Positions 30,091-58,440 are shown, numbered from the whole stretch's first letter. The stretch is DNA of 62,954 nucleotides, filler included, from Asterionella formosa (GCA_002256025.1; 6 parts of 6 records of this genome joined end to end with filler, not necessarily neighbours in it), one strand, 5' to 3'. Notes: a model not told the origin generated them from the sequence alone. Program-made: numbers and translations.

Positions 30091-32146
30091 ATGTAAACCT
30101 TGCACCCAATGATGCTATCAGAATGAGTTCTGTTCAACAACGGTGTGTTCCTTGTTGCCATTCTGATTTGAATGCTCTACCGGTACATGCTTTGATCCAA
30201 TTCTTGTACAGGTAGTACTATTTGTCATTCTTATCTCTCCATTTGCATATCAGTAATCGAATTTCTAACAAGCCAAGTGCGTTCGTTGAATCCCTTACGA
30301 GCTACCTTCTTGCGGGGATGACGACGATCTCAGTCTTATAACGAATGATATGGTCTCGATATTGATGGTGAATTATGCTGGCGAAGTTTGATTGTTTGTT
30401 TGTTACTCGAAATCAATAGCTTTGGTCAATTTATACAACAGAATTGGAGAGCGATGCATTGAAGGCCATACCCGATTCCAATTCCAACCGAAATCAAGAA
30501 GATAGTACCTTTTGATCATAATTCGCCCATTGCGAACATCGATCCGTATTTCGAATCTGTTCTTCAAGATGAGATGTGGATCAAAGTGAAGATGGACCAG
30601 ATGGCGGCGTAGTTTGTTGCTCGTGGCCTTAATCATGGGTTATCCATTCTCATTGACTAGCTATTGGCAAGCACGTTTGTTTGCTGCAGAATTAGAGTGG
30701 CCACAACATCAGCACTAATCAGGAAGTAGCTTCATTTCATTCAGGAAATAGTAGCATCACATGAACCTTGAATAGCAGGGGGTTCGAAATAACAATCGTA
30801 AATTTGCTTAATAACATTGTACTATCCCATTGTTTTAAGAAATCTCTTTATTGGCAACATCAGAGGCAATATATATAGGACAGCCTAACCCCATTGCCAC
30901 ATATATACTACTTTCCACTAAGTGACCGCTTTATATGTTCTCGCCACTCCGAAGAAGTGTAAAATATTTATGAGGGTACCAGAATCATTATTCAATCAAT
31001 AGCTGATTCGAATGTCGTACAGCAACAATGGTTGTCAAAATGAGTCCAATGATGTTGATAAACTTCTCCGTTATTGGGGCGTTTCAAATGATCCCTGTAT
31101 TTTTACTCATATTTTTGGTGCTGGTATTGATACAGAAGAAAAGAGGAATAAGCTTCTGTGCACCATTACGGCCACATTTGAGAAGCATCGCCAGAATTGG
31201 GAAACTTTTTTCCTGAAGAGCCGATGGAATTCGTCATACCTGTCATTCCAAAAAAAATTACCGATGTCGTGTATTTTCCGTTTATGCATTGACACAGGCG
31301 AATAAAAACGAAATAGTTGATGCCAGTTCATCTTCTCCCAATACCATTCCAAGAAAAAAGATCGTGTTGCTTGTATGCCCATGGTAGATCTTGTTTCTAC
31401 TTCCTCAGAGCGTCTAATTGAGTCTATTGAATCTGATAGACTTGATATAAAATCTCCCCCTCCTTCCAAAGCAAAAGCAAAATTTCAATTNNNNNNNNNN
31501 NNNNNNNNNNNNNNNNNNNNNNNNNNNNNNNNNNTTAATTAATTAANNNNNNNNNNNNNNNNNNNNNNNNNNNNNNNNNNNNNNNNNNNNATACAGTGGT
31601 CTCCACATCAACAGTTGTTGTTTGCGTTTGTGTGACTGGTTCCATACTATGCGGTTCCATTTGCCTTGCTTGTAGTATCTTCAGGGAGATTCAAATGACT
31701 GATCTGTAGTAACAAATACACAAAAACACTTGGGAGTTATAAGATCGCCAAGTATAACTTTCTGTCTGGTGCTGTATAATTGTATCAATGGTGTTGCTTG
31801 GACGATGTACGCAGCCAGCATAAAATTGAAGGAATAGTATATGCCATTTATATTATCACTGGTGCCTTGCCTTGCAGGCTTATTTTCGGTTATTTTATTA
31901 GTGACAACGGAAATGATACCCGCGTGAAAACGACAGTATCACTGATACCGTTTTTGGAGGGGGCAAAAAAGGTACCAATTTTGTATCAATGATACAAAAT
32001 TGATACCATCAAGTTACCGTTGCTGATACCGTGTTTTGATACCAACCGTCACTTTTTGCCCGCAACCCGGAAATGATACAGCAAATTCGGAATGATAAGA
32101 ACAACCCTTATTCGAGCATACAACTTGCGCGACATACACGTGCAGG

Positions 32147-35100
32147 TCACCAGCGCTGCAACGATTTGCGATGACGCAGAAAAGTCAAAAGGGGGAGTGG
32201 TTTGGTGAACATATCAGCCACCTGATCCTCCGTGTCGACATGCTCAATGCGGATAATTTTGCGCCGGACATGATCACGAAAGTGATGGTACTTGATATTG
32301 ATATGCTTGGTACGTGGGCGCATTTTCGGCGTATGAGCCAGTTCGAGCGCCCCAGAATTATCTTCAAACAGGGTACACCAAACTGCAGGCACAGCAAGCA
32401 CAGCAGGATCAAGTTTCTGCTGAATCTCCGTCAACAGACGCATCAGTGGGATTGCGTCACGCAGCGATTGGCTAAGACACACATACTCTGCCTCAGTGGT
32501 GGACATAGCAACCTCTGTCTGTAGCTTGGAGGCCCACATGATCGGACAGGATGCATATGTGATTGCATACCCAGACCGTGATTTCGCCGTCATTAAATCA
32601 CTAACACTTGTTTCTTTATTCCAATTGCCACAGAAATCGGCGTCTACCCAAACAGCAAATGAATGATCATCCGGAAGCAGGATTATTCCCTGATCGGCAG
32701 TGCCAATCAAATATCGGACAATGTTCTGCACAGACACAGCGTGGGAGGCCTTGGGATTAGCGGAGAATAGAGCGCATTGATGAACCGCATACGCAATATC
32801 CGGTCGAGTGGACTTTTCCAAGAAATTGAGCTTCCCAATAATGGATCGGTAGGACCAGTGCTCGGCAAAATCCTCACCATCAATGTCTCGCTGCAGAATG
32901 ACCGTAGAGGATGCGGGAACTCCATTGGATTTCGTGGTATTCGTAAACCTAATGTCACTGGCAATGGCCGCTATGAGGTGGGGTTGTGTAAGGGAAATTG
33001 AGTTCGAATCAGCAGACAGCGTCACCTTGATCCCTAAGTAGTCGGAGATATTCCCTTCATCTGTCAGGTTAAAACTAGCCCGCATGAGCTCGATGCATTC
33101 GTCAATCAGTCGAGCTTTTGGACTGATAAAATCCCATCATCCACATACACCATGAATATAGTAACTCCTTTATAGAGCACACACTCATCTGCGTCACTCT
33201 GTATAAATCCAATAGCCAGCAAACCTCTCTTCAAATGCTGCGACCAAGTTCTCCCAGCTTGCTTTTGTCTGTAAATGTTCTTCAGGATCTTGAGACAGAG
33301 GTCCGTTCGACCTCCCTCCGGCATCTCAAACCCATGTGGAATTTCCATGTACAAATCACACTCCACATCAGCTTGTGGGTAGGCCAGAGTAAAATCAATC
33401 TGCCTAGTACTCCAGCCATGCATCAGTGACAGCGCAAGCAGTAACCGGATAGGTGGCCAGGAAAGGGTGGCAGCATAGGTTTCCCAGTAATTAACTCCGT
33501 ACTCTTGTTTACCACCATGTAAGTTCAACCTGGCTTTCCACTTACAGACCTCCGTTGAGGCAATACGGCGTTTCCTTTTCATTGCCCACACGCACGGGAG
33601 GATCTTGGTCCCAAAAGGGACCGCTGACTTGGACACCACCTTTCAGTGATGATTGTTATGATGGGCCATAACTTCAGCCTCCATAGCGGCTATAAACTGT
33701 TTCCTGTCTGGCTCCCTCAGAGCCTGGTCGGCGCGCAACGTGTCAGGGTCGGAGGTTTTGGCCATGAAAGCTATTGGATCATCCATCATGACTTGTAGTT
33801 GATATTCCTCATCACCGTCTATGTCCTCAAGCACCGTAGAGGAGCATATAAAACCCTGTTCCACGCTTTCTTGGATTCGACGGGAAGGCTTGTGTCGCTG
33901 TGACCAACGCACTCCTGCCGCAGGAGGTGGGGAGTGGTCCGTCGGAAGAATTTGAGGACCATCCGTCTGAGATTGGTGGGGAAAGGGCCCACCCTGGGGT
34001 ACTACCTCCTGAGCGATATCGTAGTGGTGGTGGGGTATCATATTCTCTTCCGGACCACCAACTGGGGAAAAAAAGGTCCGGGATCCTCGTCACCCCCTCC
34101 ATCACTCTATCCACAATAGCGGGGGGTAGGGTTGACTCGCACCTGACTTGGCTACTGGAAAAATGAGTGGCCGAGAGCCATCCAGTCTCATAGGAGTCAT
34201 CCCCTTTTCCAACGGTTTCGAACATGTCATCAAACGCCACATGAAATTGGGGGGAAACCATACCAGTCTTAATGTTTAACACTAGGGCCACAGACCTCGC
34301 ATGCTGGGGGGATTGTCCCAGGTACACTCTCACCCTTGCTCTCTTGTACCACTTAGGTATGCTCTGACCTGCCGGCAGCAGATTAGATAGGGCGTACACA
34401 GGGCACCCGAAGGGGCGAAATGACACAATCTTAGGAGACACATCTGTCCTCGAGAAAACGCTGGCCGCCGAATTTCCGTCCAGTCGCAGGGGAGCGCTGA
34501 CTATTGCGTCGTTAGCAGTGCGCAGAGCATATGGCCACAGACAGTTCGATATAACTTTAGGCCATCTGGCTGTAGCGTGCAGGAGCGCCGTACGGGTCAT
34601 ATCCTGCAGGTCCCGAACTCGCTTTTCTGCCACCCCATTCTGGAAGTGAGCGTTGACCCCACAATACGTGATTTCCTGTCGCTGATCGGCTACGTCTTGG
34701 AGAAACAGCGCGTCGGCAAACCGACCGTTGTCCGCATGATGGTGAAGCACCTTCACACCATGGGACTCGCAGAATCTCTCGAAAGCTCTTTTGGCTCGAA
34801 CAATGTCATCGGAGGTGAGGGACCTCTGCAGGTGCACGAATGAGAGGCGGCTAAAATGTCCCACAATCACTGTGGCCGCAGTGTAACGTTGCGTCGTTGG
34901 GATCCCCTTGAGTTGGGCGATCAGGCCAGGCGTAGACGACATCATTTGATCGACCGACACGCACTGCCCGGGACAGGTTGCTGTTCTCCCTCCCACTTTG
35001 CTGGGCAGAGCCTTGGATCTCCATGCCCGTCAGGTGGCCTTGCCGTACATGCAAGCAGTACATTTTGGAATTCTTCCCTGCAACAGCCTTTTGGGCAAGA

Positions 35101-36424
35101 AACCGGTGGAGGCCATATTTCGAACTTGCTTAAACGGAAGATGCCCCAGCTGATAGTGGGTATGAAGAAGCTCGGCGGTAGCCGTCAGGGCGTCAGAATC
35201 CTCGATTTCCGTCAGACCAGTGGCTGAATCGTGGAAAAGAAGGGCATTGGGCGCAACATCACTCACTTGGGCCATCAATTTGTCGCCTCTCTTCCGATTG
35301 GCAAGGGCTCCCACCCCTCCTCCTTTGGGAACTGGCCACATGAGTTCAGCATTATCATTGTAGTCGCATGGCCGAACGAGGGGAGACTCATCACCCTCTT
35401 CACCAGAACATTCGTCATCAGTAACCGTGTTCATGTTAAAACAATTAATCCTGACATCAGGCTCCTAAGTTACCATGATTGATTCGTAGATCTGGTATCT
35501 TTTTGTCCCTGGCGCAGAAAACAAAGTTGCCACATTTGTTGCCGGGTCCAAGAGCACACTTCGAACATAGCCATTGTTTCCCCAATGTAGGGTGACCTTG
35601 TCCTCATACGTAGCGCACCATGCTCCCTTTCCTCTGCGGTCACATCGGTTGATTTCCTTGCTCCAGTGTTGAGGGGAAAACATGCGGAAAGGTGCATCAG
35701 GGGCATAATACGTCCCAGGAATACGAAAATGGTGAATACGACCGAAGTCGTCCTGTATACTCCATTTAACCTTTTCCTTTTGCAATACCGCAATTGGGCC
35801 TCCAACTCCGCTGATTTCAGCGTGAACTGGTGCAGGCACTCCCACAAAATCCGTGCTGCAGTTTGTCACACACTTAGAGCAACAATTGTCAATCATCAAT
35901 ATATAACTATCTGAATCAAACGGTAGGGTTACTGGGCCGGCTCGTGACATGGTGGACATACCAAGCCCAAATGACAAGGGCTGATCCATAGGTGCTGAAA
36001 CCCGCAGATACTCCCTTGGCTTTCGGTAGACACCGGACTCTCGCTCTCCGGAAACCCCTGATCGGAAAACTTTTGTTTTTCGGAATTTCATGCGACACGT
36101 GGGTCGTGCAAGGGCAATCTCTAACTGACACAAGGTGGCATTGATAGCTGCACACCCTCTTGCACATACTCTTGACATTGGTGACATCATCATTGAACGA
36201 CTCCGCTTCGGAATGTATAGAGTACGAAGTGGGGTCCTAGAGGTGTCATCCAACACTGGGCATAGCACTGGGATGCTAGATACAAGCACAAGTGCCCAGC
36301 ATACCCATAGGCACATCATCATGGTATGGCCAAAGAACTCGGACAAAAAGGTCATGCACGCTGGCCCACATAGAATGAACTGATAAAACCAATAGCTAAG
36401 TATGCTATTTAATTTTCTCATCAT
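32147..36424 (-). pseudogene. CoDi pol (PR-IN-RT-RH), split by frameshifts and stops
   Basis: Six consecutive minus-strand ORFs carrying the canonical motifs. Confidence 0.9.
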
Positions 36425-36439
36425 TCCCCGGCCACCTTC

Positions 36440-37704
36440 CTAGCCGGTAACTGACATGTCCTCTCCACCTTGATTAGAATCATCATCGTCATCATTTCCC
36501 TCCATGATGCTGGCCAGGGCAGTAGAGAGGGCGATGGCCTCAGCAGATTTGTCTTTGGGCTTCTTTGGGATCTTCACTGGAGGAGACATGCCCTGTGGGC
36601 TCATGTTACATTCCTTGGCGGTGTGCACCGTCCAGGAGGCGTGATTAGAGCACCAATGATACTCTTTGGTGTCTACCGTCTTGGTCTTCGGGTCATCTTC
36701 CTTAGGTGGCACAAGCTTCCATGCCCACTTCTTGGACAATTTGGCTTTGCGAGCTTTCTCCCTTTTATCATTTTTAACCTCCTTGAGTGACTTGTTTGCC
36801 TTGAAATACTCTAATTTGGCCGTGAGGGCGACAATTTGGGCCTCCAACTTGGCATCCTGGACAGAGGGCAAATTCCACCTCTTGGACTCAACAAGCATCT
36901 TAAACTTATTTAGAGCCAAATCCATTAGGGAGTCCACGCAAAAATCGACTCTCCCATCATGATACTGATCCTGCTGCCCTACCATGTAGTCATGGAAAAC
37001 CTTGTCTTCAACAGCCTCATAGGCCGTAAACAAGTTAGTTAAAAGGTCAGAGGAGGTTTCACCGCGGGACATGAGGGCATCGCGCTGGACACGAACATGT
37101 AGGTTGAACTTTTCAATATCGCAATTTACGGACAGCATGTATTGGTCCAATGCACTTAGTGTTCGTCGAATTGTCGCCACAGTAGACCTGGTATCCACGG
37201 TGCACCTTGTGATGAGGAGTTTCAAGAATGCCGCTCCACTGGCTACCACAAAGGTGTGGTCAGTAGGTGATACCAGTCTGTACGCAGCGGAGTCCGTGGA
37301 GACTTTAGTAGTGCCTCAAGTGATAAAGAATCATAGATGCACGTAAATAGTTGTGCACTGTTCTGTGCGTCACGGGTATGCGTATGCACATGTGCGGCTG
37401 AGTGAGCCACTACATTTGCCATAGAAACTCTCCCATATTCAGTAATCAGGTTCCTCCCAATGCTCTGGTCATCGGGGACAGTAAGGATGGATGCCCACCC
37501 GAACGCATCCGCTCTCTGCTGCAAAGCTTGAAGAAAGAGGCGGAGACTTCCTGTTTCACCATCGAAGGTATGGTTGAGTTTCTCAGTAGCAGACTTGTAC
37601 AGTTTCATCCCTTCGTTGGAGTTGTAATCCACAGGATCGGGGTTGGCAAGAGCCGGCGTGAGTGCAAAGACGAAGGCCGCAGGGGCATTGATTGCTTGAG
37701 CCAT
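36440..37704 (-). pseudogene. CoDi gag (one frameshift near 37300)
   Basis: ORFs 37243..37812 and 36440..37249. ATG at 37704 (MAQAINAP); acidic tail and its own stop at 36440. Confidence 0.85.
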
Positions 37705-39569
37705 GTTGGGAGCGAGTCCGCGAAGTCGAGGAGATCGACGAAGAATGTTAGAAGTAAATCTGGAGACGACGTTTTGTCGTTGTAAGCGCAGGGGAAGCGT
37801 GAGGGAAACCACCGAATATCAAATACAAATAAACGTAGTTTAATAACCAATAAGACAGGATCAATATCGAACGAATCTATTTTTGTTATATGAGATAGTA
37901 TCGTCATTTTCCACAAAAGGCAACTCATCAACCATCAGTTGGATCGCTCACAAAACGGCAACAAGAGAAGACCGGGAACATTCGAATATACATGAATGAC
38001 ACCTATAACATCGCCCATGCCACCTCTCAAATCGATACTGATATCGCCACCAAACATTGTCAAGGAGGACCCAGCAGCTTTGATGGAAACGGCATCGGCA
38101 TCTGAAGTAAGCTACAAATCGAATCCAACAACAACCGAAAACAAACCCGGAAACCCATCAGACACTTTCATACTGGGATCGTACGACTATTCACCCGTAG
38201 GAACTTCGAATATTCTCACAACGATCTACAATCCACATTCAGTTCTTCACTGTTGTACTTACCGATCCGCTTCAACTAGCATAACAAGCAGCAAACGATG
38301 GGATAAAAGAAAGACGAACGTTGCCTATTGCAAGCCCGAATAGAGCAAAGGCAGGCAAGATAGAGTGAGAACTATATTTGTGAGGACGAAATTTGGCATA
38401 CGGTACGTAAAATCAATGAATATGTGAACGATATAATTCAACATTTCAGGTCTCGTAAAAATAATACCGAGTCTACAGAGATAATATTATAACGTGTTCA
38501 AAGTAAGCGCTAAAGCATAGCTTAAACCATGCATGGTTGTTTTTAGTACCACGTACGTATGTAGACTAGATGACTGCCGGTAACCGGTAGAATATCCGTT
38601 AAGCATCATTACATACATGACCGGAGCAAAAACTTGCCAACAACATCAGATGTATCGATATCATCGTTCGTCCGACGAAATATGGACGATGCGACTACAT
38701 GAATACCTCGAGAAAACAAGCAATCCAACAATCAACCGCATCCGTTAGGCAAAGAATCGCTACTGGCGTCATCGCGGAACTGATTTCGCTTCAAACCGGT
38801 CATGATGGACGACGATTGGCATGGTGAAAGGTGAATTGCCGGAGTCCACTTTTCAGGAGACGAACAAAAACGAGGTGAATTCTAGATATAGATTATTAGA
38901 ATCTGTATAGTATATAAAATTGTTTCCTTAAGTAGACCCCTTGCCGATTTCGGCAATCCCAGGGCTGGAAAACCGAGGGGCAATTGGTGTCTGTTGTCTT
39001 GCCAAAATGCGAACATATGAAATATACAAAATATATTTTAATGATGGGCAATATCGGACCTTTGGCAATTTTCGAGGTGAAGATAGGAAATATACAAAAT
39101 ATATTTTATATGATGGGCAATAGTAGGCTAAAATTGACATTTATGCTAAATTTGTGGGCAGCAGGTAAGCGAATGACGCGACGATAGCTAGAGCGGGAAT
39201 TGCCTCAACAATACCCTTCTCGGCGGCTACTTGCCTTCTCGTATACATGTGTGCTCGACTGGGATGGCACTCGAAGGGTAACCTTCTCGCAGCGCCGGGG
39301 GCGCCACTCGTACGGTCAACCTACTCGCGCCACCAGGCCTCGAACACATGTATACTCGCAGGCAAGAGACCACCTCGGGCGTGTATTGCCTTCAGCAAGG
39401 GACCCTGATACCTCAATAATGGTCCCAGCAAGTTGCGGTAATTTTGCTGAAATTGATATCGTGACGCAGGACAGGCGTTTGATTATGACATGATTCTCCC
39501 AAACTCAATCGGTATTGTGATTAGAAAGTTGGTGACGAGATTCTAGTCCTATTGCATAATCCAAATACC

Positions 39570-41985: not shown

Positions 41986-42387
41986 NNNNNNNNNNNNNNN
42001 NNNNNNNNNNNNNNNNNNNNNNNNNNNNNTTAATTAATTAANNNNNNNNNNNNNNNNNNNNNNNNNNNNNNNNNNNNNNNNNNNNGGCCGTTCGTCCGAT
42101 ATTTCCCTCAAATGATCAAACTTCACTCCAAGTTCAACATAGTAGTACTAGATATACCGTGTTAAATTATAAAATGGGAATGAACGGAAGTTCAGACTTC
42201 GGCTGAAAAACCGGCCTACTGTCCGAACATTTCTACGAAAATCAGCGTAAGTGTCCGGTAGATGTCTGATGATGGCACACTCAGTATGATTGTAGTTGCG
42301 ACTATCTATAATGCATTGATCATCAGGGTTAGGGTTAGGGTTAGTATGGCACAGGAAAAGATCAGTCAGTGGGACAACTAAAACCAA

Positions 42388-42724
42388 TGTTACTCAAATT
42401 GGATCGAAAGCGAATGCAAAAAGAACAAGAGCATGAGAAACATACAAAGGAAAACACAGGAGCTACAAGCAACTATGAACGAGATTGTGTTAATCATGCC
42501 AGAGAAGGTCGTTAGAGCCAAGCTAGAGAAACTATCAAGAAGAAAACAAAAACTAAGGAGATTCGATAGAAACGAAAACTATAAAAAAAGAGTCAAGATG
42601 CATTATCTAAAATTGCATATTGCTGGCGTCAGAGGGGATGCAAGACATGGCATAAGCTGACGTATGACACTGTCATACGTCTAATTCCTGGCAGGAATTA
42701 GACACATATGACGAGAATTAGACA
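42388..42724 (-). repeat. 3' LTR of a copia element (TG...CA, ~337 bp)
   Basis: On the minus strand the polypurine tract gggaggac is followed by TGTCTAAT...GAGTAACA, ~45 bp after the RNase H stop. Confidence 0.7.
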
Positions 42725-42767
42725 GTCCTCCCAAAGTGAATGTCAGGAAAGATAAACTTTGTGGTCG

Positions 42768-44520
42768 TTAACGCCATAACATGTGGCAACAGAGCTCGAA
42801 ATGTTTGTGTGGTGGTAACCATTTGGTTAAGACATCAGCCAAATTGGTGGCTCCCGGTTTGTGATGAACTCGCAAAGAACCTGTAGCAACAGATTCACGA
42901 ACCTTATGGTAAGCAATGGAGTTATATTTCTTTTGTAATGTAGAATCAGGCTTGGTTAAATTAAGGAGCACACTGTTGTTATCACAGAAGGTATTCGTGG
43001 GTTTGTCAATAGCTATGCCAAGCATTGGTAGTTTGTATCGAAGTCCATTGTTCATTTCTGTGGCGATTTTCAAAGCAATAAACTCCGAACCAAAAGTAGA
43101 GGATTCGATTGTGTTTTGTCGTTTAGAATACCGTGTAACCGGGGTGCCGTTGAGGAATATAATGATACCAGTTGTTGAGCGCCGTGTCATTAAGTTGGTA
43201 GCATGTGATGCATCGCAAAACATGTTACTTTGAACACTATTTCCACATGCTGGTTTAGATGCATTGATAGGCATCTCTTCGTTTACGTTTGGGTAGAATT
43301 CCTTCCAATTCTCAGATAGCCAGGAAAGGTTTGACCAATCTCGTTCATGAGGATCAATAACAATTTGACACTTGAGGTATTTCTTTATGCAGGCAAAGAT
43401 GCGTAAAACTGCAACCATGTGCCCCTTTCGTGGAGTGGCCATGAATTTTGCCAGTGTTGCGCCAATATGTGCCAAGTCAATTCTTCCGAGCTCAATAGCC
43501 CATCTCAGTATACCAATATAACTTTGGTATAATTTGGTGTCATTTTCATTTAGGAAATCAGTGTCATCAAGTTCATGGTCGAAGTTTGGTGATGCAGGCG
43601 GCGGTGCATCAAGTTTAGTCTTGAACATTGCTTTGAGCGGTCTGAATGTTGCTTCAATGACTGGCAAGGCCTTTTCAAGGTAATCCTCAGCAGAAATGAA
43701 CCAGGCTTCACTCCCGTTCTCCAACTGTTGTTTTCCAATCTTAGCTCCAAGGTATCTAGTGGGGGGGGTCCCACATCCTTGAGCCGATAAAGGAATGGTG
43801 ATTCCGCAAATGTGTTGATGTTTTATATGGAATCCTCTGAAATGCACAAAATGTCTTCCACGTACACTAAGATGTACTCCAAATATTCAAAACCATTTGA
43901 TTTTCTTGCTTCATGGTACCACATGTTGGGGTCCGCATAACTTGGGATAAAGTGCAAGTCCCGTATGCCATGCTGCAACGGAACTCTTTTGGCCATAGAG
44001 GGCACTTGCAATGATGGCGATTCTTCCGGCGTCTTCACTGAATTCGGGACTGGCAATGCAGTATAATTTTTCTTCTGTTGATGCATCAAGGTATGCATTT
44101 CCCATGTCCGCCATTTGTACATCAAGGCTGTTTAGCTAGTGCTGCTATGAGGAATGCGATACAAACGCTATCCTGGGAGACAACTGAGGAGTATGTCAAA
44201 GAATTGGGAGGGGGGGTCAGTGCGGTGTCCCCCTGCAACCAGTCTTGCTAGTAGTAAAATCAATTTTTATGTCGAATATCATACAGGTTGGAATGAGTTT
44301 GTATCCAGCTGGAGGTGTGGATTCTTTATGTTTCAGGTCAAAGGCAACCCATACATTTGTCATTTCTTTCATAATGGCATCATGCCACAAGGTGTTGTTA
44401 TTGTATGCGTCAAGTTCAAGGGCTTTGGTTACATTGACGGGAACCCTAAGACCGAATTTGAATCCAGTACAGATTGCTCGTCTCTGGGATAGTTTTATCA
44501 ACCGCTTCTGTTTACGCAAT
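42768..44520 (-). mobile_element. Degraded Ty1/copia (second CoDi lineage) RT-RNase H
   Basis: KFGLRVP...ALELD..N..LWHDAIMKEM, ADMGNAYL, YILVYVED, YQSYIGILRW, CDASHA...RRSTTG, ESSTFGSEF and NLADVLTK. Confidence 0.92.
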
Positions 44521-44529
44521 GATATATGA

Positions 44530-47500
44530 TGTACCCTCTCTGCAAATAAAAGCTATCATATATCCATGATGCATCATAGGATTGTGATCATCTGATCATA
44601 ATATTTTGTTATATCATCAAATAATTTTGATAAATGCCTTTGTAATTTAAATAGTAACCCTTTTGACTACATATATTTAATTATTAAATGTATTGTTTCT
44701 ATTTGATTCCTGTATTCGAATTTCTTGGTGGGATAATGTACCAGCTCAAGTAATGTAATTTGGCTCGTCATTTCCATCCGTCATCACGCCGATTTTTGCA
44801 ACAACAACGAAATACTAGCGACGACAAGCAGATTGAATGTTTGCGATAATGTCTTCAATTGTTGGTCAAGTGATCATTATATCTTTGAGTAATCATCATG
44901 AGCAGTGAACCTTTGTTCATAATCATTCAATTAAGAGTTGACAGGAGAGAAGAAATCATTCGAACTCGTAATGTTTCCGCACACAGCGCACAAAGTAAAT
45001 CCGTTTCGTTCACTTCAGCATGACAATTTCGCCAATCAACCCGTAAGCAAACACATTCTACTTGTTCTCATTGACATTTTCAATTCTCACATGATACTAC
45101 CACATCTACTATTGTTATTCAGCATAGAAGGAGATACGAAAATGTGCGTAACAGACTACTGTCCACATAGCTATATTTATAGAATGATTCTGATTAGAAT
45201 GCATTTCATTTTCATATCGCTCGCTAGTTTCTGCATTTGGTATACTGTACTTGAATTAACTATTGAACTTGTCGGCATCTTTGATACCATCAAGAGAGCG
45301 AAAGCAAGTGGCTCTTTTCATTGTTGTTTGCTCGTAGGAAGAATTTATTATCTGTATCGTCATTTGCTTGTTGGAATTGTCCGTTGCCTCAAACTTGCTT
45401 GACGTGTGCGTGCAGACACTGTCGACTGGTTTTCAATGGTATGTTGTTCTTGTATTCACTGTTGAACTTGTCCGCATCTTGCTTTGTTACCATCAATAGA
45501 GCGACAAGTGCGTCTCTTCATTGTTGTTTGCTCCTGGAAAAGTCGGTGTCTGTGTCATCCTAATCAATAGAGAGACAAGTGTCCTCCATCATTGCGGTTT
45601 GCCGCTGGAAAAATGGTACTTGTGGTATTGTCATTCGCTCGTTGTAACCACTGTCCGTTGCCTCAAACCTGATTAGCGTGTGTTGTGTGTATGTGCACTG
45701 TCGACTTGTGTACATTACAGGAGTGACTTGTTAGCTACTAAAGTGCGTGATATAATAATATACCCCGTAGCACAATGCAGAATACAGTTCCCAATCATCT
45801 CATCATGATTGATAAGATGATAATGTGATATCATGATAGGGTTACATCGATGCATACATCACCAAAGTATGATATGTGAAATTGAAAAAAATTTATCACA
45901 TAGCTATGATACATTGATCAAAAAACAATGATGATTTTATAAAATGTTTATGATATATTTTTAATCAAATTTGATCATGTTAAAATAATACAATGACAAT
46001 AAAATACGATAAAATATGTTTGCAAGTGTTATCAATATATCATAGAAAAAGAAAAAAAGTCATAAAGTATGTTACTTATTATATACATTTAACTTTAAAT
46101 GTATACAGTAAAAGACAACAGTTAATATGATAGTATTATTTGGTGGATAGGATCTAAGTATACGGATGCGTTGATATGTACATCACTATAATATGATTTG
46201 TGACATGGATTGATGCATATCACATACCGGTATCCTCGACAACCAGCCTTCACCATCGTCATGTCGTTTTACCTTGTTATAGCTATATATATGCCAGCAT
46301 GTGTATTGTGTAAACACTACGCTGGCGGAACATGCATATTACACTGTGCTCTGTTCAACAATTACTACACTCAGTTACCATCACACCAGCTGTACCTCCA
46401 CAAGCGCCGCAAAAAGCTCCGCGTTTCCCTTTCACTGTTTTACATAATAGTCTTCTATTCCCTCAGTTTGTCATGTACTTGTTGGTCTGTGCGATTAGAA
46501 TTTTTTTTGATATGGTTCCATGTCATCCATCTGCATCCAGGAGTTATTAATGGTATCATCGACAGGAGCCATTTTTCTTGTATCAATAACTGAAGTAGAA
46601 ACACACACGTCATCATCGCTGTCAGTATCAATTACGGGATCCTTTGTACTAGTAGCTGATGGTGTTCCCATTGACAATGGGGTATTACCCCCAACGTCTC
46701 CCAATCGCCGATTGGGTTGCTTTGGATAATCGCCTATTCGCTTTTTCTTTGTTAACTCATTTTGGTACTTGCTTCTTTGTTCCATACCGGCAGTATTTGC
46801 CACATGTCTCTAGTTTCCATGAACCTCTTTATGGTTTCTTGAAGACATTGTACTACTTAATAACTGTTGTCGTTGTCTTCCTTAAAGTACCAACAAGACA
46901 CGTTTAGATTACATCAAATCAACATTTGGTGGCATGTGCATTAAAAAGTTGAGAGAATGTCTGAATGTAGCTATTGAATAATCAATTTAAAGGAATCTTA
47001 GGTAAGTTCTTGCAGGGAGATGCACCGAAAGCATGATGTTTTGAGTCGGGGATTATATTCTTATCAAATATGTTTGCTAACATAATTCATGACACACCAG
47101 CTGGTTTAACAGAATATAGCTAACTTCCAGACTATGGATATTGATGACTTTATTAGGTGGGCGTTCACGCTTTATCGTTTTGCGCAGTCAAAGGACATTA
47201 ACAGTGGAAGCCATGGATACCAAGTCTGGCGTGATGTTCTTGCTCCGGTGTATTTTATAGGCAGGCAGGACAAGCCGTGGAGAACCATTTTTAACAGGAG
47301 ACGAATCTGGTGTGGCCAAATTTCAACTCAGTCTTCGGGCACAGTGTGAATTGCAAACACGTTTTGTTGGTTTGCTGATCAATGCCAGTACAGAAGCATT
47401 TTGCTTCTTGATGCTGAAAGGAAAATTCCGATTACAACAAAAATATTTGGGTTTCAATCCAGATACCCATGAAATTTCAGAGAACGATAGCTATTCGTCA

Positions 47501-49695
47501 TTCTACTGATTTTGTCGACATTGGTGGGAAACCACTTATTAAAAAAAGTGTGAGCAATGGAAGAAAGTTCAGTTTCAAATGGTCTTACTGATCAATGGAC
47601 TGATGATCTACTCGTTTATTATAAGGAAATCTACACTGGACTTTCACAAAAGAATCGATCTGAATATGGAAGGAATCCTAGTGGAATTGCTACTCCCACC
47701 GCAAATATCATCTACCCACACTCATACTTCTCATTTCCCAACGTAAGTGAAGAGGATATACATCAATATGTTGAATCACTTGAACCAAATGTTCCTGAGA
47801 AGACTATTGATTATAATGACCGCATTAATCAACGGGACATTGATGACGACATTGATTTTGAATGGATCTAATAGAATCCAATGCATACTTAGTAGTTACA
47901 TAATAATTATAGTTAGTGTGAGACTTCTACAATGCAAGCCATATCATAGATGATAGGAAAACATTGATTCTGCTCTATGCTACTATTACTATTAGTGCCG
48001 CCTGTACTACATGTAGCGGTATACCTCCATTTTCACTACTATGGTGGAGTGATAATTTCACGACTCTGTATTTTCCAGCACAGCATGTTCGAAGTGGTGC
48101 TCAATTTATTATTTTAAATTAATTCATTTTCATTCTATCCTGTTCATATCCTGACTTGGTCATCATTTGCAATTTGCAATGTCTTTGCGCACATTGCAAT
48201 GGTGTTATCTGTGTAACTACAAATTTCGGAAGAAGAAATCCCCATCTGAGTCTCACAATCGAAATTGTAGCAACCGTGTTCTTTATGCATATGGTCATTG
48301 CCGACATTGCATGCAGGAACATCGAGTTCCTGGAATACATAGTGAAACTATGTATTGCGGTAGTGCAAATAATCATTCAAGGAAAGAAGTTAATGATGGC
48401 AGTGTAACTGCTGCAGCATTTAGGGAGATTAGACAAGAAGAGATTAATTTGTCCTATCCTTGAATCAAGTGACCACAATCATCCACTTCATGACGACAGC
48501 GACGATTCAGTTTATAACAATATTCAGTCACAACAGGACGAACAATTGAGACTAAAAACTCTCCAAGGGTTGAATTCAGAAACCATGCAATATTCAGATT
48601 TTCAAGATCACACCGGCTTTCTCCCTGAAAATGCAATGGAAATGCCCCTTCCTCCTCAATTTCAACTTCCGAGTAAACATTCTCTGAACATGCGCGCATC
48701 CAATCGAATGAGAACTCATGTTATTCTTCAACGAGAATTATCTTCCACCAGTTTACTTTGATCATCTAATGAAATGGCTGTTCAAGGCAAAAGCAATGAA
48801 ATATTTTGATGGAAGGTATCAAGCTCGCTCCATCCTACCAGACTTTGAAAAAACGCATGGATATTTCATTTCCACCAACATTAGCTGGTGTTCAACTGTT
48901 GACCAAACAAATAAAGATTGATATCAATTCAAATATGATCATCCCACGCACACTCCATTATTTCGAACCAGTACAGCTCATGGCAGGATTGCTATGCACG
49001 TGATTCCGATATCATGCAACATTTTGTATGTCACCCACAAGTGAAACTTACAACTTGTGGAGAACTCATGCATATATGACGAAGTAACTTCTGCGACTTG
49101 GTTTGAAAATGCATTCAACAATTCTCCTGCATCAGAAAATGGAGTGTTGAAGACAGGGTGTTTATTTGTTGCCCTAGCAGTTTTCAGTGATGATGGTTCA
49201 CCTATTGATAAACAAATGAAACATTCCGAGCATCCGTTTTTGCTGACAATGTTAAACTTAACGTTAGAAGGAAGAAAAAAGTTGATGGATGGCAATTAGT
49301 ATCTCTTTTGCCAGACATTGAAGTCAGTGATCTGGAGAAACAAATGAACAATAAGTTATCTGGTGACGACTTGTCCTTATGTAGACTAAAATTATATCAT
49401 TCTGTTACAGGATTTCTATTGTCGCCTTTCGAAGAGCGATCCAAACAAGTCATACAATATTTGGGTTCATGGTTTTGGTATGACAAAAGTTTATTTCCAA
49501 ATTTGAATGATCATTGGTGATACAGAAGAACACAATATATTTTGTGGCTTCAGGGGTGGTAATGAATTATATCGACGATATGTTTGTCGTGATTGCCTGG
49601 TTTCAACTGAGGATGCTGATAATCCTGATATTGGATGTGAACGTCATAAAGTGTCAGATGTTAAAATGTTTTTAAACAAGTTTCTTGACAAAAAT
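44530..49695 (+). mobile_element. Rearranged second copy of the Plavaka-like element (inverted arm, split ORF1, 5' half of transposase at 48160-49695)
   Basis: Piecewise homology to 26625-28680 (inverted), 16203-16540 (direct), 14780-16160 (inverted) and 21084-22790 (direct). Confidence 0.85.
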
Positions 49696-49699
49696 TGAT

Positions 49700-50770
49700 G
49701 GTTGGCCAGCCACCAAATCGAAAAGGAGCTATTGAATCACTGAAAGGGGACAAGTCATTCCGTATTTTTAATCCCAGCAATTGATCATCCTGGCATTTGC
49801 TCTTGACAAACCATGATGCTATGCACAGCTTGTTGATTCCGCCCTTTCTCCATCATATTCACTCATTCTTAGCCGCATGGTGTATCATCGTGCTGTATTG
49901 TCACTTCAGTTTTTCGCATCATGTGTTGCTTGAGATCCTTCATTTCAGGAAGTGGAGGCATGACAAGGAACATGAAAGGCATTTGCTCTTGACTTGTTAC
50001 CATCAATTGACTCCGCCCTTCTCTTCTAAGCCGCAAGTATCGCTCATTGTGCTGTATTATCACTTTCGTTTTCCGCGTCATCATGTGTGATGATCCTTCA
50101 TTTCAGGAGCAAAGTGTATACATGACAAGGAACATGAAAACATGATTTCAAATGTTTCAGCCATGAATACATATGTATAAAGATTTGTAAGAATTTTAAA
50201 TGTATGTATAGTTGAGCATCTGCATAGTTTTAAGCACGCTCATTATACGGCACATCCTGTGTATACTAATATCAATTTTGATCATACATAATTCAAATAT
50301 ATACAATGCATGATGAGTTCGTTCATAGTTTTCCACGACTTGTTGAATTTTTTCAATTTTTTGTGTGTCAATTCTTGTACCTACAAGTCAGTGGCTGATT
50401 CAATTAAGCCCCTTAATAAACGGGAGTCATCACCAATTTTTCAAATGGTCGAAATCATACATTTATGTATATAGACATATTGACCAAAATTCATATGGCC
50501 TACCGGTAGTACTTTATACTTGCTGGGAATTACTTCTATCATGGAAATACCACAATAGTGCAGTGGAAAACTGAATATGCTCATGTGTTCTTTAGGATCA
50601 TTTGATCATATTTTTAAGATCAATTAATCCTGGCTGATTCTTGAAAATAAATTTTGATCTTTCAATTTCTCATCGACAACACCATTTGTCATATGATCAA
50701 TATGTTATGATCAAAGGTATAGGATAAACAAATCAAAATTTATTGATAAAAAATCATAGTTTTTTCCAGA
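49700..50770 (+). repeat. Repeat family 'D', copy 2, with an internal ~185-bp duplication (49792-50140)
   Basis: Homologous to 350-930 and to the reverse complement of 57690-58310. Confidence 0.75.
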
Positions 50771-51149
50771 GTAGTTGCTCATGCATGCAACCCCTTCCCC
50801 CATGTATACAGTATGGAAGTGATAGCTCCCAAGCTACCAAATTTTTATGTCTTGTAAGAAATATTGCAGCATGCATGAATACATGACTCCTACTGGTATA
50901 TACAATGCGGAAATGATGACCACCAGACTACCAATCCTATAGGTCCTGTAGAATTATCGCAACATGGCTGCATATCTAGCTAATGGATGGGCGGGAGGAG
51001 TCATCGTATGAAATATGGAAATGATCAAATATATTTTATAAAAGGAGCAGTCCATCATATATGCCCAGTTATTGAAATCCCTTGATCTGTTCTGCGCTTT
51101 TTCGCCACAATTGTTTTCATTGGCTGTTTCACTGGACAGCATTCGAATT

Positions 51150-52400
51150 GATTCTGCTTCGAACGAAGCAATGATCAAAGTCCACCCCATTGCAGAAGGG
51201 TGATTCTCACAAATAAGTATCAGCCAGTCGATTAAAATTTGACTGTCTTTTGTGCACCCTTGTTGTGTTTGTACTTGACTTGGCAACTGTCAGCCAAGAG
51301 CAGCCATGGTATGCCACCATTTATTGTCTATACAAGTTTCGAATGCATTCAGCTATGATAACTTTTGCTCCCCCTTCCTAAACACTATCTCACCACCCTT
51401 GTCATAGATTTTTCTTTATCCTTTGGCTTCACAGGCCCAGGTTACTCAATGCCTTCATCTGCAAGGAGTTCAGCCAAGCAGGCCCACGTTGGCGTCAATA
51501 AAACCTCAACCCCGATTTTCCTCACATGATCCACCCATTGACTCCTTCATTGATGAAGTCGAGGTAGCTATATTGACGACATCAGGTGTTGCAGGCTTGT
51601 GTATAGATTGATGATGCCGAAAGCATTGATTCCTTTTCCAGTAGGTACCTATTTGTCAACATTGTTTGGGTCAATCCATCCTTGTTCCCGCAAGACAAGC
51701 AATAATCCCTTTAATTCCACTCCCAACATTCCTTTCTCTTTCACAATTGTTCTGATGTTTGCAGAGAATTTTTAGTTCCCTTTTGATTTTTCCACTAGTT
51801 TCGATCCCTTTTGCATTCAAGTCAAGAAAACAAGCAAATCATTAAGATTTCTGGAGGTTTTGGTCAGTGGCACCATAAAGCAACAATCAACAGATCATGA
51901 CGGCTGTTCTCCATTTTCTGTAGCAAGTGACATTCAAGAAGGGTCTGGGATCATTGGGGAGAAAAATTAGTAGGATTCTCTGTGTTTGCCCCCACCCGTT
52001 TGACAGGAGCCATTCTACCATTGCTTCCTCTTACCAATCAATGCATACTAGCTAGTATAGCTAATGAAAACTGTAATTAGATGAAATGTGACTTCCGGTT
52101 TCTAATTTTTACATTGTTGCACTACTGAAACTTGAATCCATAAATGGGCATTCAACTTGTCCTTGCTTCTTGCATTTTTGCAGTATAGACTGGCTGGTGT
52201 TCGATAGGACAAAGAGTCTCGCTTGTTTTCATGAACATCTACAAAGTACTAGTGCTTTTGTCGAGGTTTGTGTCTAAATCCAACTTCTGCCATCCATTGA
52301 AATATTCCAGATACATCAAAGAATACGCTCCTGTCTTCAAAGGTAAGGATCTAGTACAATGACAAAGGAAATCTAATGAGACATGAAAATTACGAAACCA
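51150..52400 (-). pseudogene. Highly decayed IS630-Tc1-mariner-like transposase, C-terminal half
   Basis: Across frames: KGLLLVLREQGWID, SLQHLM..DFINE, KIGVEVLLTP...ELLADEGIE, CIRNLYRQ.MVAY and HPSAM/DFD, matching KG..QVL.ERG, TPK.H.ELAGEGIEY and HR.A.DFD of diatom ITm-like transposases as I recall them. Confidence 0.6.
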
Positions 52401-53914
52401 GAATCACTCTGTTACTATAAATAGACAGTGGTCTCATGCTTCTTTGTGCATATCGCCTGCTATGCTGCGTTTCAATTNNNNNNNNNNNNNNNNNNNNNNN
52501 NNNNNNNNNNNNNNNNNNNNNTTAATTAATTAANNNNNNNNNNNNNNNNNNNNNNNNNNNNNNNNNNNNNNNNNNNNGGTTGAAGTGGTAGAATGAAGGG
52601 GATGCCCAATGGTGGTAGGAGTTGGTACCCGGTACCTGGCATCAGCGTACCAGGTACTATGTACCGATACTGATAAGAATTGCTATAGCAATAAACCCGC
52701 AACCGGTATGTGGGTTTGTGATGCTGAAGAGGAACACGACCGAAATCATTCATATCGATATGTACATCGTGAAATGCGAACATAATTTTATGATACATAG
52801 ATATAACGGGAATGAATATACCGGCAAGTTGCGGTAGTTGTCCTGAAGCTAAATAGTTAGCTTTCTTTATCCAGGATTAAATTATTTATTTAAGTAAAAT
52901 GACCTTCAACTTGCGTATACCGGTATTTACTACAATACTCCTACTAAATATTACCAACAGTAAGTATCATAAGGTCGTCTGCAGAGGAATGATATACCTC
53001 TATGCATATACCGGTATATTAAACGATTTATCACTTGTGTTTCGAGCAAAGGAGAACAAATGAATCTACGGTTTTTAGTGGTATGTATGTCTACCGCTAC
53101 CAGGGTACAGTATGATCATTTTTCCACCATTCATAGTAAATGACTTGTACTGGGTGCCTGATACTGAAACCGGTCATACTACGCTGTACAACCATTCAAA
53201 AAGAGTAAGATAGTACACAACCGGTATTGCCGGTAAATGTAATTTGTGTACATCTGGCGCAACATCGCCAAATTTTTATATGCTCACAAGAAGAAACCCA
53301 CATCAAGGTGGTTCCTGCATTAACCCCTAGCCCGAACGACACAGGGTTAAAAACATAACATTGATTCAGACTAATCAAACAACCTACTTTTCAAATGCAC
53401 AATACAATTCATTCTCCTGCACCCCCAATGTTCACTGCCATGACTGAATTTGACTGATTTTACGTAAGGGGGGAGGCCAGGACAATGAAGAGATTTATAT
53501 TATATTAGACCTATGTAAATTTCATCGGTTCTACAGGATGGTGCCCATTTTTCTAATTAGTAATAATATGATCATTATCTCTATAAAGTGAAAAATGAGA
53601 AAGTTCTTCAGCTTGCAAGAAAAACGCGACTTCTTATTGCTAATAGCAATCTCAATTTTCGTTGTCATTATTACTAGTGTTGTTACTTTACTTCTTTTAT
53701 GATTGTATTTTCTATGTTGTGCTTAAGGTTCCTGCATTTGATCCCCTAGCTCGAGGTACTAGGGTTACAAAATATTGAGTCAGACTAATCAAACAAATAT
53801 TTATCACCTCTAAAATAAATATGTAAAACGCTCAACAGAGCGTTCACCATTAGACACGCACCTTTCCACATACAGTCTTCAGACAAAGTAGGGGTGTAGA
53901 CTAGTAGGTCCTCC

Positions 53915-54950
53915 CTATACATTCTCAGGATATAGGATCTGGCGAGAAACTGCAGAAAGGAACTTCGGTTTTTTACTATGCTAAAAAGATTAGAAAATTA
54001 GGGGGAAATCTGTTTATTTGTTATGGTTTAAAAAAACCGAAGTTCCTTTCTGCAGTTTCTTGCCAGAAGATATGTACTGATGCTATTTGTAGGTTGTTAC
54101 TATCTATGTATTGAAATCGCCTTCAGACCCAGTCGACGTTGAGCTATCATCGTCAAAAAATCCGACAAAATCTGCCTTTTCTACAGTCTCTAAAACAACG
54201 GAATCAGAATCATTAAACGCGGAAACGTCATCATCGGAATGATAGTCTTTCATCATAGCACGTAGCAAAGTGTCGTTCTCAACTTTTGCGGAGATAATTT
54301 ATATTTTTGTCATGGTCAAGGTTCGACAACATGATGAAGGATTCTCTGGCTGCTTACAACCACTAGCTACCTGTCTACTCTAGTGTTGAATATGTACAAA
54401 GGAATCGCAACATCATAGCTAAATAATTATATACCAGTTTCTACGAGGACCAGCAGAATTATAGCACGTTACTTTGACTATGTCTAGAAAATTATTGGGT
54501 GTTTGGTGCCACCTGGAAAAAATCTGCAGGGGGGGGGGTCAGCAATCTAGAGGGGCAGGACCATGGATTATATGATATATATATATATGTATATATATAT
54601 TGCTACTTGGAGCTTTCACAATTTGACACCCTTTCCATATGCTTAGATACAGTCATTGGTCAAAGTATGGGTTTAGGACAACTCTTTGATATATTCTCTG
54701 GAAATAGGATCTGGTGAGAAAGTGCAGAAAGGAACTTCGGTTTTTTACTGTGCTAAAAGAAGACTTTGAAAATTTGGGGGAAATCGGTTTACTATTTGCA
54801 ATAATTTAAAAACAGAAGTTCCTTTCTGCACTTGTTTCTCACCGAAAATTGCTTCTGTGGCTATATGAAGTTTACCTATGTATTTAATTATTATTCAAAA
54901 CCAGACAAAATTGAGCAATCATCTTTCAAAAATTCGAAAAAACTGCTTAA
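53915..54950. repeat. Two copies (53915-54180 and 54690-54950) of a ~260-bp unit containing a ~38-bp-arm inverted repeat
   Basis: Arms tctggcgagaaactgcagaaaggaacttcggtttttta (53938) and taaaaaaaccgaagttcctttctgcagtttcttgccaga (54029-54067); second copy at 54710-54844. Confidence 0.88.
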
Positions 54951-56530: not shown

Positions 56531-56784
56531 AAACTACATTTATTGAATAACATTGTATTCCTAACAACCTTTAACATATTCGTATCGAGTTTTTAATTGT
56601 TGCTGTTATCGCTTTACTGATGTTTGTTGTCATCTGTTGGTGTTATGCATATTGAAGTCCTCCATATCGACGTTGGCTTTGTGATGGAGCGACTTGGTTT
56701 TGACGTGTTGCTGGCTTGCCGTGCTGGTGGAGTAACAATGCAAAAGGCCTCGTGAGTAGAACTGTTTAGACGACTCTATAAGGA

Positions 56785-57680
56785 GGTGATGGAGGGGTGT
56801 ACGCAATAACACAGTCACGAAGAAACAAACTAGAATTGGTATCTATAGTTGATGCAGGAGGGAACGCAATAACATGGTCACGTGGAAACAACCTAGTATT
56901 GGTAAGTATAGGTGATGGAGGGTACGCAATAACAACATCATATAGAAACAACCTAGCATTGGTATCTATAGGTGATAGAGGGAACACAATAACATGGTCA
57001 CATAGAAGCTACTTAGCATTGGTATCTATAGGTGATGGAGGGAACGCAATAACACGGTCACATAGAAAGAACCTAGAATTGGTATCAATAACAGACAGAG
57101 GGTACGCAATAATGGCGTCTGTCACGTAGAAGCAACCTTGCATCAGTATCTATAGGAGGTGATGGAGGGTATGCAATAACATCATCACATAGAAACAACC
57201 TACTAGCAGTGGTATCTATAGGTGATGGAGGGAACGCAATAACATGGTCACATAGAAGCTAGTACTTAGAATTGGTGTCTATACTAGGTGATGGAGGGAA
57301 CGCCATAACACGGTCACATAGAAAGAACCTAGCATTGGTATCAATAACGGACAGAGGGTAGTACGCAATAATGGCGTCTGTCAAGTAGAATCAACCTAGC
57401 ATCCGTATCTATAGGTGTTGGAGGGTAGTACCACGCAATAACACGGTCACATAGAAACTACCTAGCATTGGTATCTATAGGTGATGGAGGGAACGCAATA
57501 ACATGGTCACATAGAAGCTACTTAGCATTGGTATCTATGGGTGATGGAGGGAACGCAATAACATGGTCACACAGAAAGAACCTAGCATTGGTATCTATAA
57601 CAGACAGAGGGTACGCAATAATGGCGTCTGTCACGTAGAAGCAACCCAGCATTAGTATCTAGAACAGATGGAAGGTGGTA
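56785..57680. repeat. 60-bp minisatellite, ~14 units, with 4-unit higher-order periodicity
   Basis: Consensus gtgatggagggaacgcaataacatggtcacatagaaacaacctagcattggtatctatag; a diagnostic variant occurs every fourth unit. Confidence 0.95.
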
Positions 57681-57689
57681 TCCTATTCA

Positions 57690-58440
57690 TTCGATAAAAG
57701 CATAGTTTTGATCATATGATAAACAATGTCATTGATATGAGAAAATGAATGATCAAAATTAATTTTGAGAAGGAGGAGGATAAAATGATATTAAAAATAA
57801 GATCAAAAGAACTAAATATTGTTATCGGTTATCTAATTTTACTGGCTATCATTTCTAACCCAAAAGAATGACATGTAATTGATAAAGTTTAATTTGTATA
57901 TCTTATAGGTTTGATCAAAGTATATTGATCATATGATAACAAACAGTGTCATTGATATGTGAAAATAAATGATAAAATTTATTATATGATTTGTACCATA
58001 TGAAAAATGCAGCATGACTCCCTCTAATTGAAGGGCTTAATTAAGTCACTGACTTGTTGGTACAAACATTGATACTGAAATTTTTTCAAAAACAGTACAT
58101 CAGGTCGTGGAAAACAATGATTTCTTAGTGCATTCTATATATTTGAATTATGTGTAAGCTTAACTGATGATTTAATATACGCATTATTTGCGATATAAAG
58201 AGGGTCGTTGAACTATGCAAGTTTTCAACTGTATATATGTTTATACATTTACAAATTTTTATAAATGTGTACATGGCCAATACATTTGAAATCATGTTTA
58301 ACGGTTCCTTGCCATGCACACCGGTATACTTATGCGATATTCGAGTGACACATTATTTTACAGAATATTGATTTCTGGTAAATGAAAGAATGTAAAATGG
58401 AACTGCCATGTTGAGGTTTTCAGAAAACATGGCTAACTAC
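57690..58440 (-). repeat. Repeat family 'D', copy 3
   Basis: The reverse complement matches 80-200, 625-930 and 50120-50770. Confidence 0.8.

Follow-up and report, generated by a model that had tools for sequence, protein, structure and literature searches.

The closest documented parallel to the event described here is the canonical footprint of the Tc1/mariner transposons, which for Sleeping Beauty is given as TA-CAG-TA or TA-CTG-TA, formed from 3' overhangs by end joining (PMC6943129). In a 62,954-base stretch of DNA from Asterionella formosa (GCA_002256025.1; hereafter the window), we found a recurrent four-base insertion that converts any dinucleotide XY into XY-GC-XY, with the 2 bp duplicated on either side of an invariant GC. 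The two products are alike in having a 2-bp duplication that flanks a few fixed bases, in their uniformity and in the existence of rarer shortened variants (PMC6943129). They differ in that Tc1/mariner targets TA and leaves three fixed bases, whereas the scars in the window duplicate many dinucleotides and add 2 bp (GC), with no element or transposase seen. We know of no report of scars at a comparable density.

Several other described systems share single features with the scars. ISL2EU, of the PHIS superfamily, has a 2-bp target duplication, AT within A-AT-T (PMC4482050), and is like the scars in duplicating 2 bp at AT-rich sites, AT being the commonest dinucleotide here with 40 of 149 instances. 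Membership in ISL2EU, as the target is described there, was rejected: the flanking positions -1 and +1 carry no A/T signal beyond composition, and many of the targets are not AT. For the CMC superfamily the same source gives target duplications of 2-4 bp (PMC4482050). CMC members with 2-bp duplications (Mirage) resemble the scars in their short target duplication. CMC ends are CAC...GTG, and the bases left behind would be C...G instead of G...C.

Repeat-induced point mutation (RIP) of fungi is similar in being a mutational process that is confined to repeated or transposable element (TE) DNA and destroys TE reading frames; it makes C-to-T transitions, not insertions, and we know of no mechanistic link between RIP and the scars. 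Topoisomerase II-linked de novo duplications of 2-4 bp are likewise short and come from filled-in staggered breaks, but they are pure tandem duplications, whereas the scars add a GC that is absent from the original sequence. In the literature that we searched, mainly abstracts, there was no description of a scar consisting of GC plus a 2-bp duplication, or of a TE-specific indel process in diatoms.

Results

A four-base insertion recurs between repeat copies

The window consists of six contigs of about 10.4 kb each and is not one locus; N44-TTAATTAATTAA-N44 linkers occupy 10445-10544, 20984-21083, 31491-31590, 41986-42085 and 52478-52577, and adjacency across them is meaningless. Alignment of paralogs gave 5757 aligned columns with 447 substitutions and 68 indel events, including 22 of 1 bp, 9 of 2 bp, 11 of 3 bp and 17 of 4 bp. 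By a strict overlap rule, nine of the 17 four-bp events coincide with an XY-GC-XY hexamer; three more fit through an equivalent placement of the gap (48823, 49066 and 16000), and the one at 16031 is the decayed form of an event that another sequence preserves intact; the remaining four (14952, 45789, 47555 and 48114) are of other kinds. Under the same overlap rule, each of the other 15 middle dinucleotides accounts for 0-3 events. The first-pass annotation of this DNA had held insertions of this type to be a major source of indels, and the spectrum bears this out, since four-bp events outnumber those of 3 bp and of 2 bp and 12-13 of the 17 are XY-GC-XY.

A second alignment combined three window copies of the repeat with seven metagenome contigs (L001-L007), which were recovered from other metagenome assemblies by a 20-base pattern from the repeat. 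Eight of its ten four-bp insertion events are canonical. Events private to other copies are AAGCAA in L001 and L004, TAGCTA in L002 and TGGCTG in contig 2, and a GGGCGG event in L003 is found decayed in contig 2.

Slippage or tandem duplication was considered as a general cause and rejected, because it fits only the events at 47259, 48692 and 48823 (AGGCAG, GCGCGC and TCGCTC) and not the other 9-10 canonical ones. At 46968, 47117, 47488, 21872, 44133, 45199, 49434 and 15993 the shorter allele is without GC, so that there is no GC to slip on and most events must be of a non-slippage kind. Two insertions, at 47890 and 50317, are plain tandem duplications and were excluded from the phenomenon. 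Hairpin-opening (P-nucleotide) footprints of the hAT/Transib type were rejected as well, since the insert is GC whatever the flank and the duplications GA..GA, TG..TG and AA..AA are direct, not inverted.

The motif is in excess in TE-rich sequence

We compared the number of XY-GC-XY hexamers with two null models. When the left and right neighbors of GC were kept but made independent, the TE-rich parts of the window held 149 hexamers against 61.9 expected and the gene contigs 92 against 89.9. In 100 order-3 Markov simulations, for which 255 patterns were scored, duplication of 2 around GC was the single outlier (131 against 54.7, z=10); the runner-up, at z=4.6, is a by-product of the XY-GC-XY motif itself, and in the gene contigs the pattern lies outside the top 18. 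The share of GC dinucleotides that sit in the motif is 21% in contig 5 (86/404), 14% in contig 3 (51/353), 11% in contig 2 (44/389) and 18% in 1-2540 (13/72), compared with 6.7-7.7% in the three gene-bearing contigs. For the other 15 middle dinucleotides this share is mostly 5-10% in each contig, leaving GC as the only one enriched among the 16. Part of the count is background, because ATGCAT at 44081 and at 44093 is in-frame coding sequence of a reverse transcriptase (RT).

The insertions had been described as specific to TA. This does not hold: TA makes up 19 of the 149 instances in the TE-rich parts, and many other dinucleotides are duplicated, those above expectation including AT (40), TT (19), AA (17), CA (10), TG (9), TC (8), GA (7) and GT (6). 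Besides AT, 14 other dinucleotides were found duplicated, with TA, AT, AA and TT favored, and polarized events outside TA comprise GAGCGA, TGGCTG, AAGCAA, TTGCTT and ATGCAT. Without the restriction to TA, the proposed assignment to IS630/Tc1/mariner elements loses its support. A TA-G-TA or TA-C-TA class, also part of the earlier description, is not clearly enriched, duplication of 2 around C reaching z=2.3 and around G lying outside the top 18 patterns; a minor class of non-tandem 3-bp insertions of the form XY-G-XY or XY-C-XY does exist, at 27354, 27672 and 45099 and as TACTA in L003. The target has no motif other than the duplicated dinucleotide itself, whose A/T content is about 80% per position against 63% overall, and positions -1 and +1 around the hexamer have background composition (A 0.32, T 0.30).

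Insertions at single sites

The copy at 46889-48284 is 85-86% identical to its paralog, the reverse complement of 14693-16159. Against the reverse complement of 15070-16100, we recovered all three GCTA insertions that had been reported to create TAGCTA in it. The one at 46968-46973 is present in this copy only, the four bases being missing in the seven other copies that cover the site; that at 47117-47122 is present in this copy, L005 and L006 and missing in six others, and breaks an open reading frame (ORF) that is intact in L007; that at 47488-47493 is in this copy only, and a separate AAGCAA insertion lies 5 bp upstream of it in L001 and L004. The same copy, alone of nine, has a 4-bp insertion in AGGCAGGCAG (47259-47268) that fits AG-GC-AG and also tandem duplication. 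An exception is the CAAT insertion at 47555-47558, found in one of nine copies (this one), to which no XY-GC-XY reading fits. At 47890-47895 the extra TAG that had been noted is present, but it is an ordinary 3-bp tandem duplication (TAGTAG) of the slippage type rather than a TA-x-TA scar; it is common to five of the seven copies covering the site, and its polarity is ambiguous. Of two further TAGTA sites once cited with it, that at 847 rests on an alignment of 72% identity, and no polarity can be assigned to that at 19606.

Further canonical insertions are ATGCAT at 45199-45204 (a 4-bp gap against 27643-28584), TTGCTT at 45479-45484 (a 4-bp gap against the contig-3 paralog), TGGCTG at 50631-50636 and, in the contig-2 copy only and missing in eight other copies, CAGCCA at 15993-15998, which is TGGCTG on the other strand. 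Paralog alignment also gave ATGCAT with an adjoining substitution at 49068-49073; GAGCGA at 49434-49439, which is neither palindromic nor tandem; and GCGCGC at 48692-48697, which fits GC-GC-GC and is also repeat-like. TCGCTC at 48825-48830 fits TC-GC-TC and can equally be read as a GCTC tandem duplication. TAGCTA at 21872-21877 is missing, as had been stated, from the 93%-identical paralog near 48740, and its TAG terminates a 189-amino-acid (aa) ORF at 21305-21874. The earlier designation of this ORF as a transposase is not supported by any Pfam match.

Insertions break the reading frames of repeats

Each canonical event shifts the frame by +1. A low-copy, frameshifted copia-type pol lies on the minus strand at 42768-44552 and was recognized by motifs in its translations (RT with YVED motif, RNase H); Pfam gave no match for the 359-aa form of ORF 42768-43847 started at ATG, GTG or TTG. 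In the RT, TAGCTA at 44133-44138 stands exactly at a +1 frame switch, in agreement with the first-pass annotation: the translation runs '..SVVSQDSVCIAFLIAAL' in one frame and 'LNSLDVQMADMGNAYLDA..' in the next ('..CIAFLIAAL' to 'LNSLDVQMAD..'), and the TAG is an in-frame stop. Contigs of X1 and X7 span the site without a gap. Between 43930 and 44270 of the minus strand there are four successive frameshifts in the copia pol, all +1; beside TAGCTA they coincide with a change in the length of a C-run near 44205 and with TAGCAA at about 44243, which could be a decayed scar, and the fourth, at about 43960, is unexplained.

An orphan repeat-encoded protein frame on the plus strand at 47030-47871 is broken by four 4-bp insertions, while in L007 (790-1620, minus strand) it is an uninterrupted frame of 276 aa; L006, which has the 47117 insertion, is interrupted there. 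The claim that such scars disable TE genes is thus substantiated in two cases, the copia RT and this 276-aa ORF. Compared with 1.84 billion representative sequences, the 276-aa ORF gave 58 matches, nearly all of them short fragments of the same family and mostly 35-200 aa long, which indicates that the gene family is widely fragmented. The repeat ORFs, including 21305-21874 and the 276-aa ORF, matched no Pfam family, and in the ESM Atlas the repeat proteins had only matches of 0.81, below the level that counts.

Scars are concentrated in a high-copy repeat

Most scars are carried by a very high-copy repeat mosaic at 44539-52477, in which 71 of 294 GC dinucleotides sit in XY-GC-XY and whose summed contig depth in four runs is about 300-1800 times that of the copia part at 42433-44514. 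Its terminus at 44539 (TCTGCAAATAAAA...), which has variable flanks, is common to contig 3 at 28680, and related repeat stretches occur at 21084-22793, 26615-28680 and 14693-16546. The low-copy copia part is also enriched (15/110), whereas the non-ORF DNA of the gene contigs is at background level (38/505, 7.5%). One of the gene contigs contains an old copy of the high-copy repeat (57679-58326), where none of the 13 GC dinucleotides sits in the motif, compared with 4 of 14 in contig 5, both being small numbers. The motif share is 12% overall in L001-L007, which are near-consensus copies, and 24% in the more diverged contig-5 copy. TAGCTA is found at matching positions in contigs 3 and 5 (26786/46280, 27171/45901 and 27336/45732), so part of the scar load predates these copies.

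The repeat copies also differ by larger rearrangements. A 78-bp tandem duplication at 15345-15500 is confined to the contig-2 copy. In the window the 430-bp unit at 46458-46888 has its neighboring sequence immediately next to it, at 46884; in L004-L007 the unit is inverted and about 500 bp away from that sequence. From its inverted and distant position in these four metagenome contigs, the contig-5 copy is judged to carry an inversion and a deletion.

Both alleles occur in independent assemblies

DNA near-identical to contig 5 is present in runs of 15 studies, the labeled ones being mostly freshwater metagenomes. Contigs from four runs, one from each of four studies, were compared with contig 5 as assembled contigs, not raw reads. 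Among the best 12 of 98 length differences, six consist of four letters left out, and five of these six fall on XY-GC-XY hexamers: TTGCTT at 45478, AGGCAG at 47259, TAGCTA at 47488, TCGCTC at 48823 and TGGCTG at 50630. The remaining one of the six, at 50317, simply duplicates GTTC in tandem. At all five hexamers both alleles occur in all four runs. Contigs without the four letters make up 28-45% of the depth at the 45479 site, 39-90% at 47259, 34-55% at 47488 and 29-85% at 50630, shares that are blurred by nearby alternative insertions and are valid only for the presence of both alleles. The sites 46968 and 47117 lie outside the best 12 of the 98 length differences, which is uninformative either way.

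Four lines of evidence agree that the longer allele is derived, as had been assumed. The motif is enriched, and deletion within pre-existing XY-GC-XY could only deplete it. The carriers hold minority alleles, the insertions at 46968, 47259 and 47488 being found in the contig-5 copy alone and that at 47117 in three of nine copies. The insertions, moreover, interrupt conserved frames, that of the 276-aa ORF and that of the copia RT, which supply the third and fourth lines.

Other features of the window

An intronless agmatine deiminase gene is encoded at 4661-5698 on the minus strand, and its best named relatives, at 54-58% identity, are from the diatoms Seminavis, Cylindrotheca, Cyclotella and Epithemia; on this protein evidence the host is identified as a diatom. 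Repeats common to the contigs indicate that they belong to one genome: 2285-2534 matches 26182-25933, and 729-929 and 50121-50459 both match about 58000-58300. A scaffold gap of 509 N lies at 2541-3049. At 56784-57668 there is a tandem array whose units repeat about every 63 bp and are 75-85% identical. Downstream of a gypsy-type RT ORF, a 98-bp near-perfect palindrome (19926-20023), with 47-nt arms that are 91% complementary and a 4-nt loop, resembles a miniature inverted-repeat transposable element. The plus-strand open frame of 1304 aa at 10552-14466 has no Pfam match and lies in strongly A-rich surroundings (AT skew 0.15-0.32). At 32147-37812 the sequence is GC-rich (48-52%) and contains long minus-strand ORFs (177-389 aa) arranged in a chain, and all four that were tested had no Pfam match.

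Discussion

We tentatively propose, at a probability of about 0.4, that the scars are footprints left by the excision of a putative cut-and-paste DNA transposon that duplicates 2 bp of its target and has GC ends complementary to each other. We infer the transposon, its ends and its cutting geometry from the form of the scars, in which the exact duplication of an arbitrary dinucleotide together with a constant insert is what a target duplication plus leftover element ends would look like. Integration would proceed through a 2-bp staggered cut that duplicates whichever dinucleotide is struck, with a mild preference for TA and AT, then AA and TT, then others; the lack of a motif beyond the duplicated dinucleotide is as expected of weakly selective transposases. 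At excision, as in Tc1/mariner, the non-transferred strands would be cut inside the element, so that each flank retains its terminal bases as a 3' overhang. If the ends were 5'-GC...GC-3', the two GC overhangs would be mutually complementary and could anneal and be ligated to a uniform XY-GC-XY; this proposed self-complementarity would account for the uniformity of the product. Ends of the form 5'-G...C-3', with one base left per side, would give an identical product. The loss of one base would yield the rarer XY-G-XY and XY-C-XY, and the minor class that we observed is as expected from imperfect joining of such ends. That GC alone is enriched points to a fixed source and against random nucleotide addition, and the non-palindromic events GAGCGA, TGGCTG, AAGCAA and TTGCTT indicate direct duplication rather than hairpin-derived palindromic bases. 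Footprints would build up in transposon-rich DNA either through a preference of the element for it or through a lack of tolerance for footprints elsewhere, and their 4-bp length would shift the frame of any gene struck.

Several observations weigh against this proposal. No inverted-repeat element with G or GC ends and 2-bp flanking repeats was found in the 63 kb: a list of inverted repeats gave no candidate, and none of the 51 matches from a search for terminal inverted repeats flanked by 2-bp repeats was convincing. Neither the 63 kb nor 17 kb of loci contained a candidate element with matching terminal bases, and the tested ORFs had no Pfam transposase domain. Neither the hairpin (19926-20023) nor the inverted units (53925-54833) have the ends required of the source element, and both were rejected as candidates. 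No larger indel between paralogs has the form of such an inverted-repeat element with its flanking repeats, and no filled site was seen among the best 15 of 319 joints or the best 24 of 3868 loose ends; the allele types seen at scar sites are empty and footprint. None of the described superfamilies that we checked combines an unspecific 2-bp duplication with G...C ends. The density is high, with about 58 hexamers above background in the 10.4 kb of contig 5 and about one event per 37 substitutions between paralogs. The non-ORF DNA of the gene contigs has no excess (38/505), for which a strong insertion preference or selection has to be added to the footprint model. Finally, the carriers of the 47117 insertion form no clade, L006 and L007 differing at 7 of 1768 sites yet also for the insertion. 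This requires recurrent hits, gene conversion or chimeric metagenome contigs, and chimerism is indeed possible in metagenome contigs when a repeat is present in hundreds of copies.

The confinement of the excess to TE-rich DNA is the main argument for the chief, though unlikely, alternative, in which transposon-rich chromatin is cut with a 2-bp stagger by a host- or TE-encoded activity, perhaps that of a domesticated transposase or nuclease, and repair leaves GC plus the filled-in duplication. Such repeat-directed cutting would resemble an insertional repeat-induced mutation in which each hit is a frameshift. It agrees with the contrast between TE-rich sequence and gene contigs under the independent-flank null and in non-ORF DNA, with the striking of two unrelated TE types (the copia pol and the high-copy repeat), with the +1 shift of all canonical events and, in small numbers, with the old repeat copy in a gene contig, which has none of the scars. 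On the other side, no candidate gene was identified and we know of no enzyme that adds a fixed GC, while the preference of a transposon for certain insertion sites, or selection in compact gene regions, could equally produce repeat-specificity. The events also seem to accumulate roughly in proportion to divergence and not in bursts: there are 0-1 in near-consensus copies and 2-4 in more diverged ones per 1.8 kb, again in small numbers. We accordingly regard as doubtful the fuller claim that this diatom has a repeat-directed insertional mutagenesis, analogous to RIP via insertions, in which an enzyme would recognize transposon-rich chromatin, cut with a 2-bp stagger and leave GC, the +1 frameshifts inactivating transposon genes.

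The breaks might also be general, for instance of the Topo VI/Spo11 type with 2-nt 5' overhangs, which would be filled in, gain one G at each 3' end and be joined as XY-G+C-XY; heterochromatin would repair them by end joining, and repair would be accurate elsewhere. The product is symmetric on both strands, as if the same thing happened at both ends, 3-bp variants exist and there is no extended target motif, all of which fit. Plain XY-XY duplications, however, which should be the main by-product, are not enriched, and no pattern with an empty middle is in the top 18; the lack of excess in gene-contig non-ORF DNA needs the added assumption about repair; and we know of no polymerase that would add just a single G. 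We consider such end joining rather improbable. Errors in copying the repeat, such as abortive target-primed reverse transcription or template jumps, would place the scars at transposition rather than in resident DNA. The TAGCTA sites shared by diverged copies, some of which predate the spread of the repeat, and the motif share of 12% in near-consensus copies against a background of about 7% speak for this. The same signature in the copia element and in an unrelated orphan repeat, the absence of the expected range of insert lengths with one common end, and the presence of several events in only one of 9-10 sampled copies speak against it and make it a poor candidate. Least credible of all are slippage, chance motif content or sequencing and assembly error. 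Three or four events would also pass as 4-bp tandem duplications (47259, 48692 and 48823 among them), 47890 and 50317 are nothing else, and the two in-frame ATGCAT of the RT are a background share of the count. Against this stand the excess under both null models, the lack in most shorter alleles of a GC on which to slip, the occurrence of these and additional events in seven metagenome contigs of other assemblies, and the five scars with both alleles in contigs of four studies.

The change from XY to XY-GC-XY is one sharply defined event that constitutes most of the 4-bp indels and about one-fifth of all indels between repeat copies. If the scars are excision footprints, diatoms would harbor a very active and undescribed cut-and-paste element with unusual ends and target rules, and the scars would be a countable record of its past insertions and excisions. 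If they are not, they would represent a new type of mutational process, specific to repeats. In both cases the signature can easily be scored in any assembly and could be used to date repeats, to map the affected chromatin compartment and to help find the enzyme.

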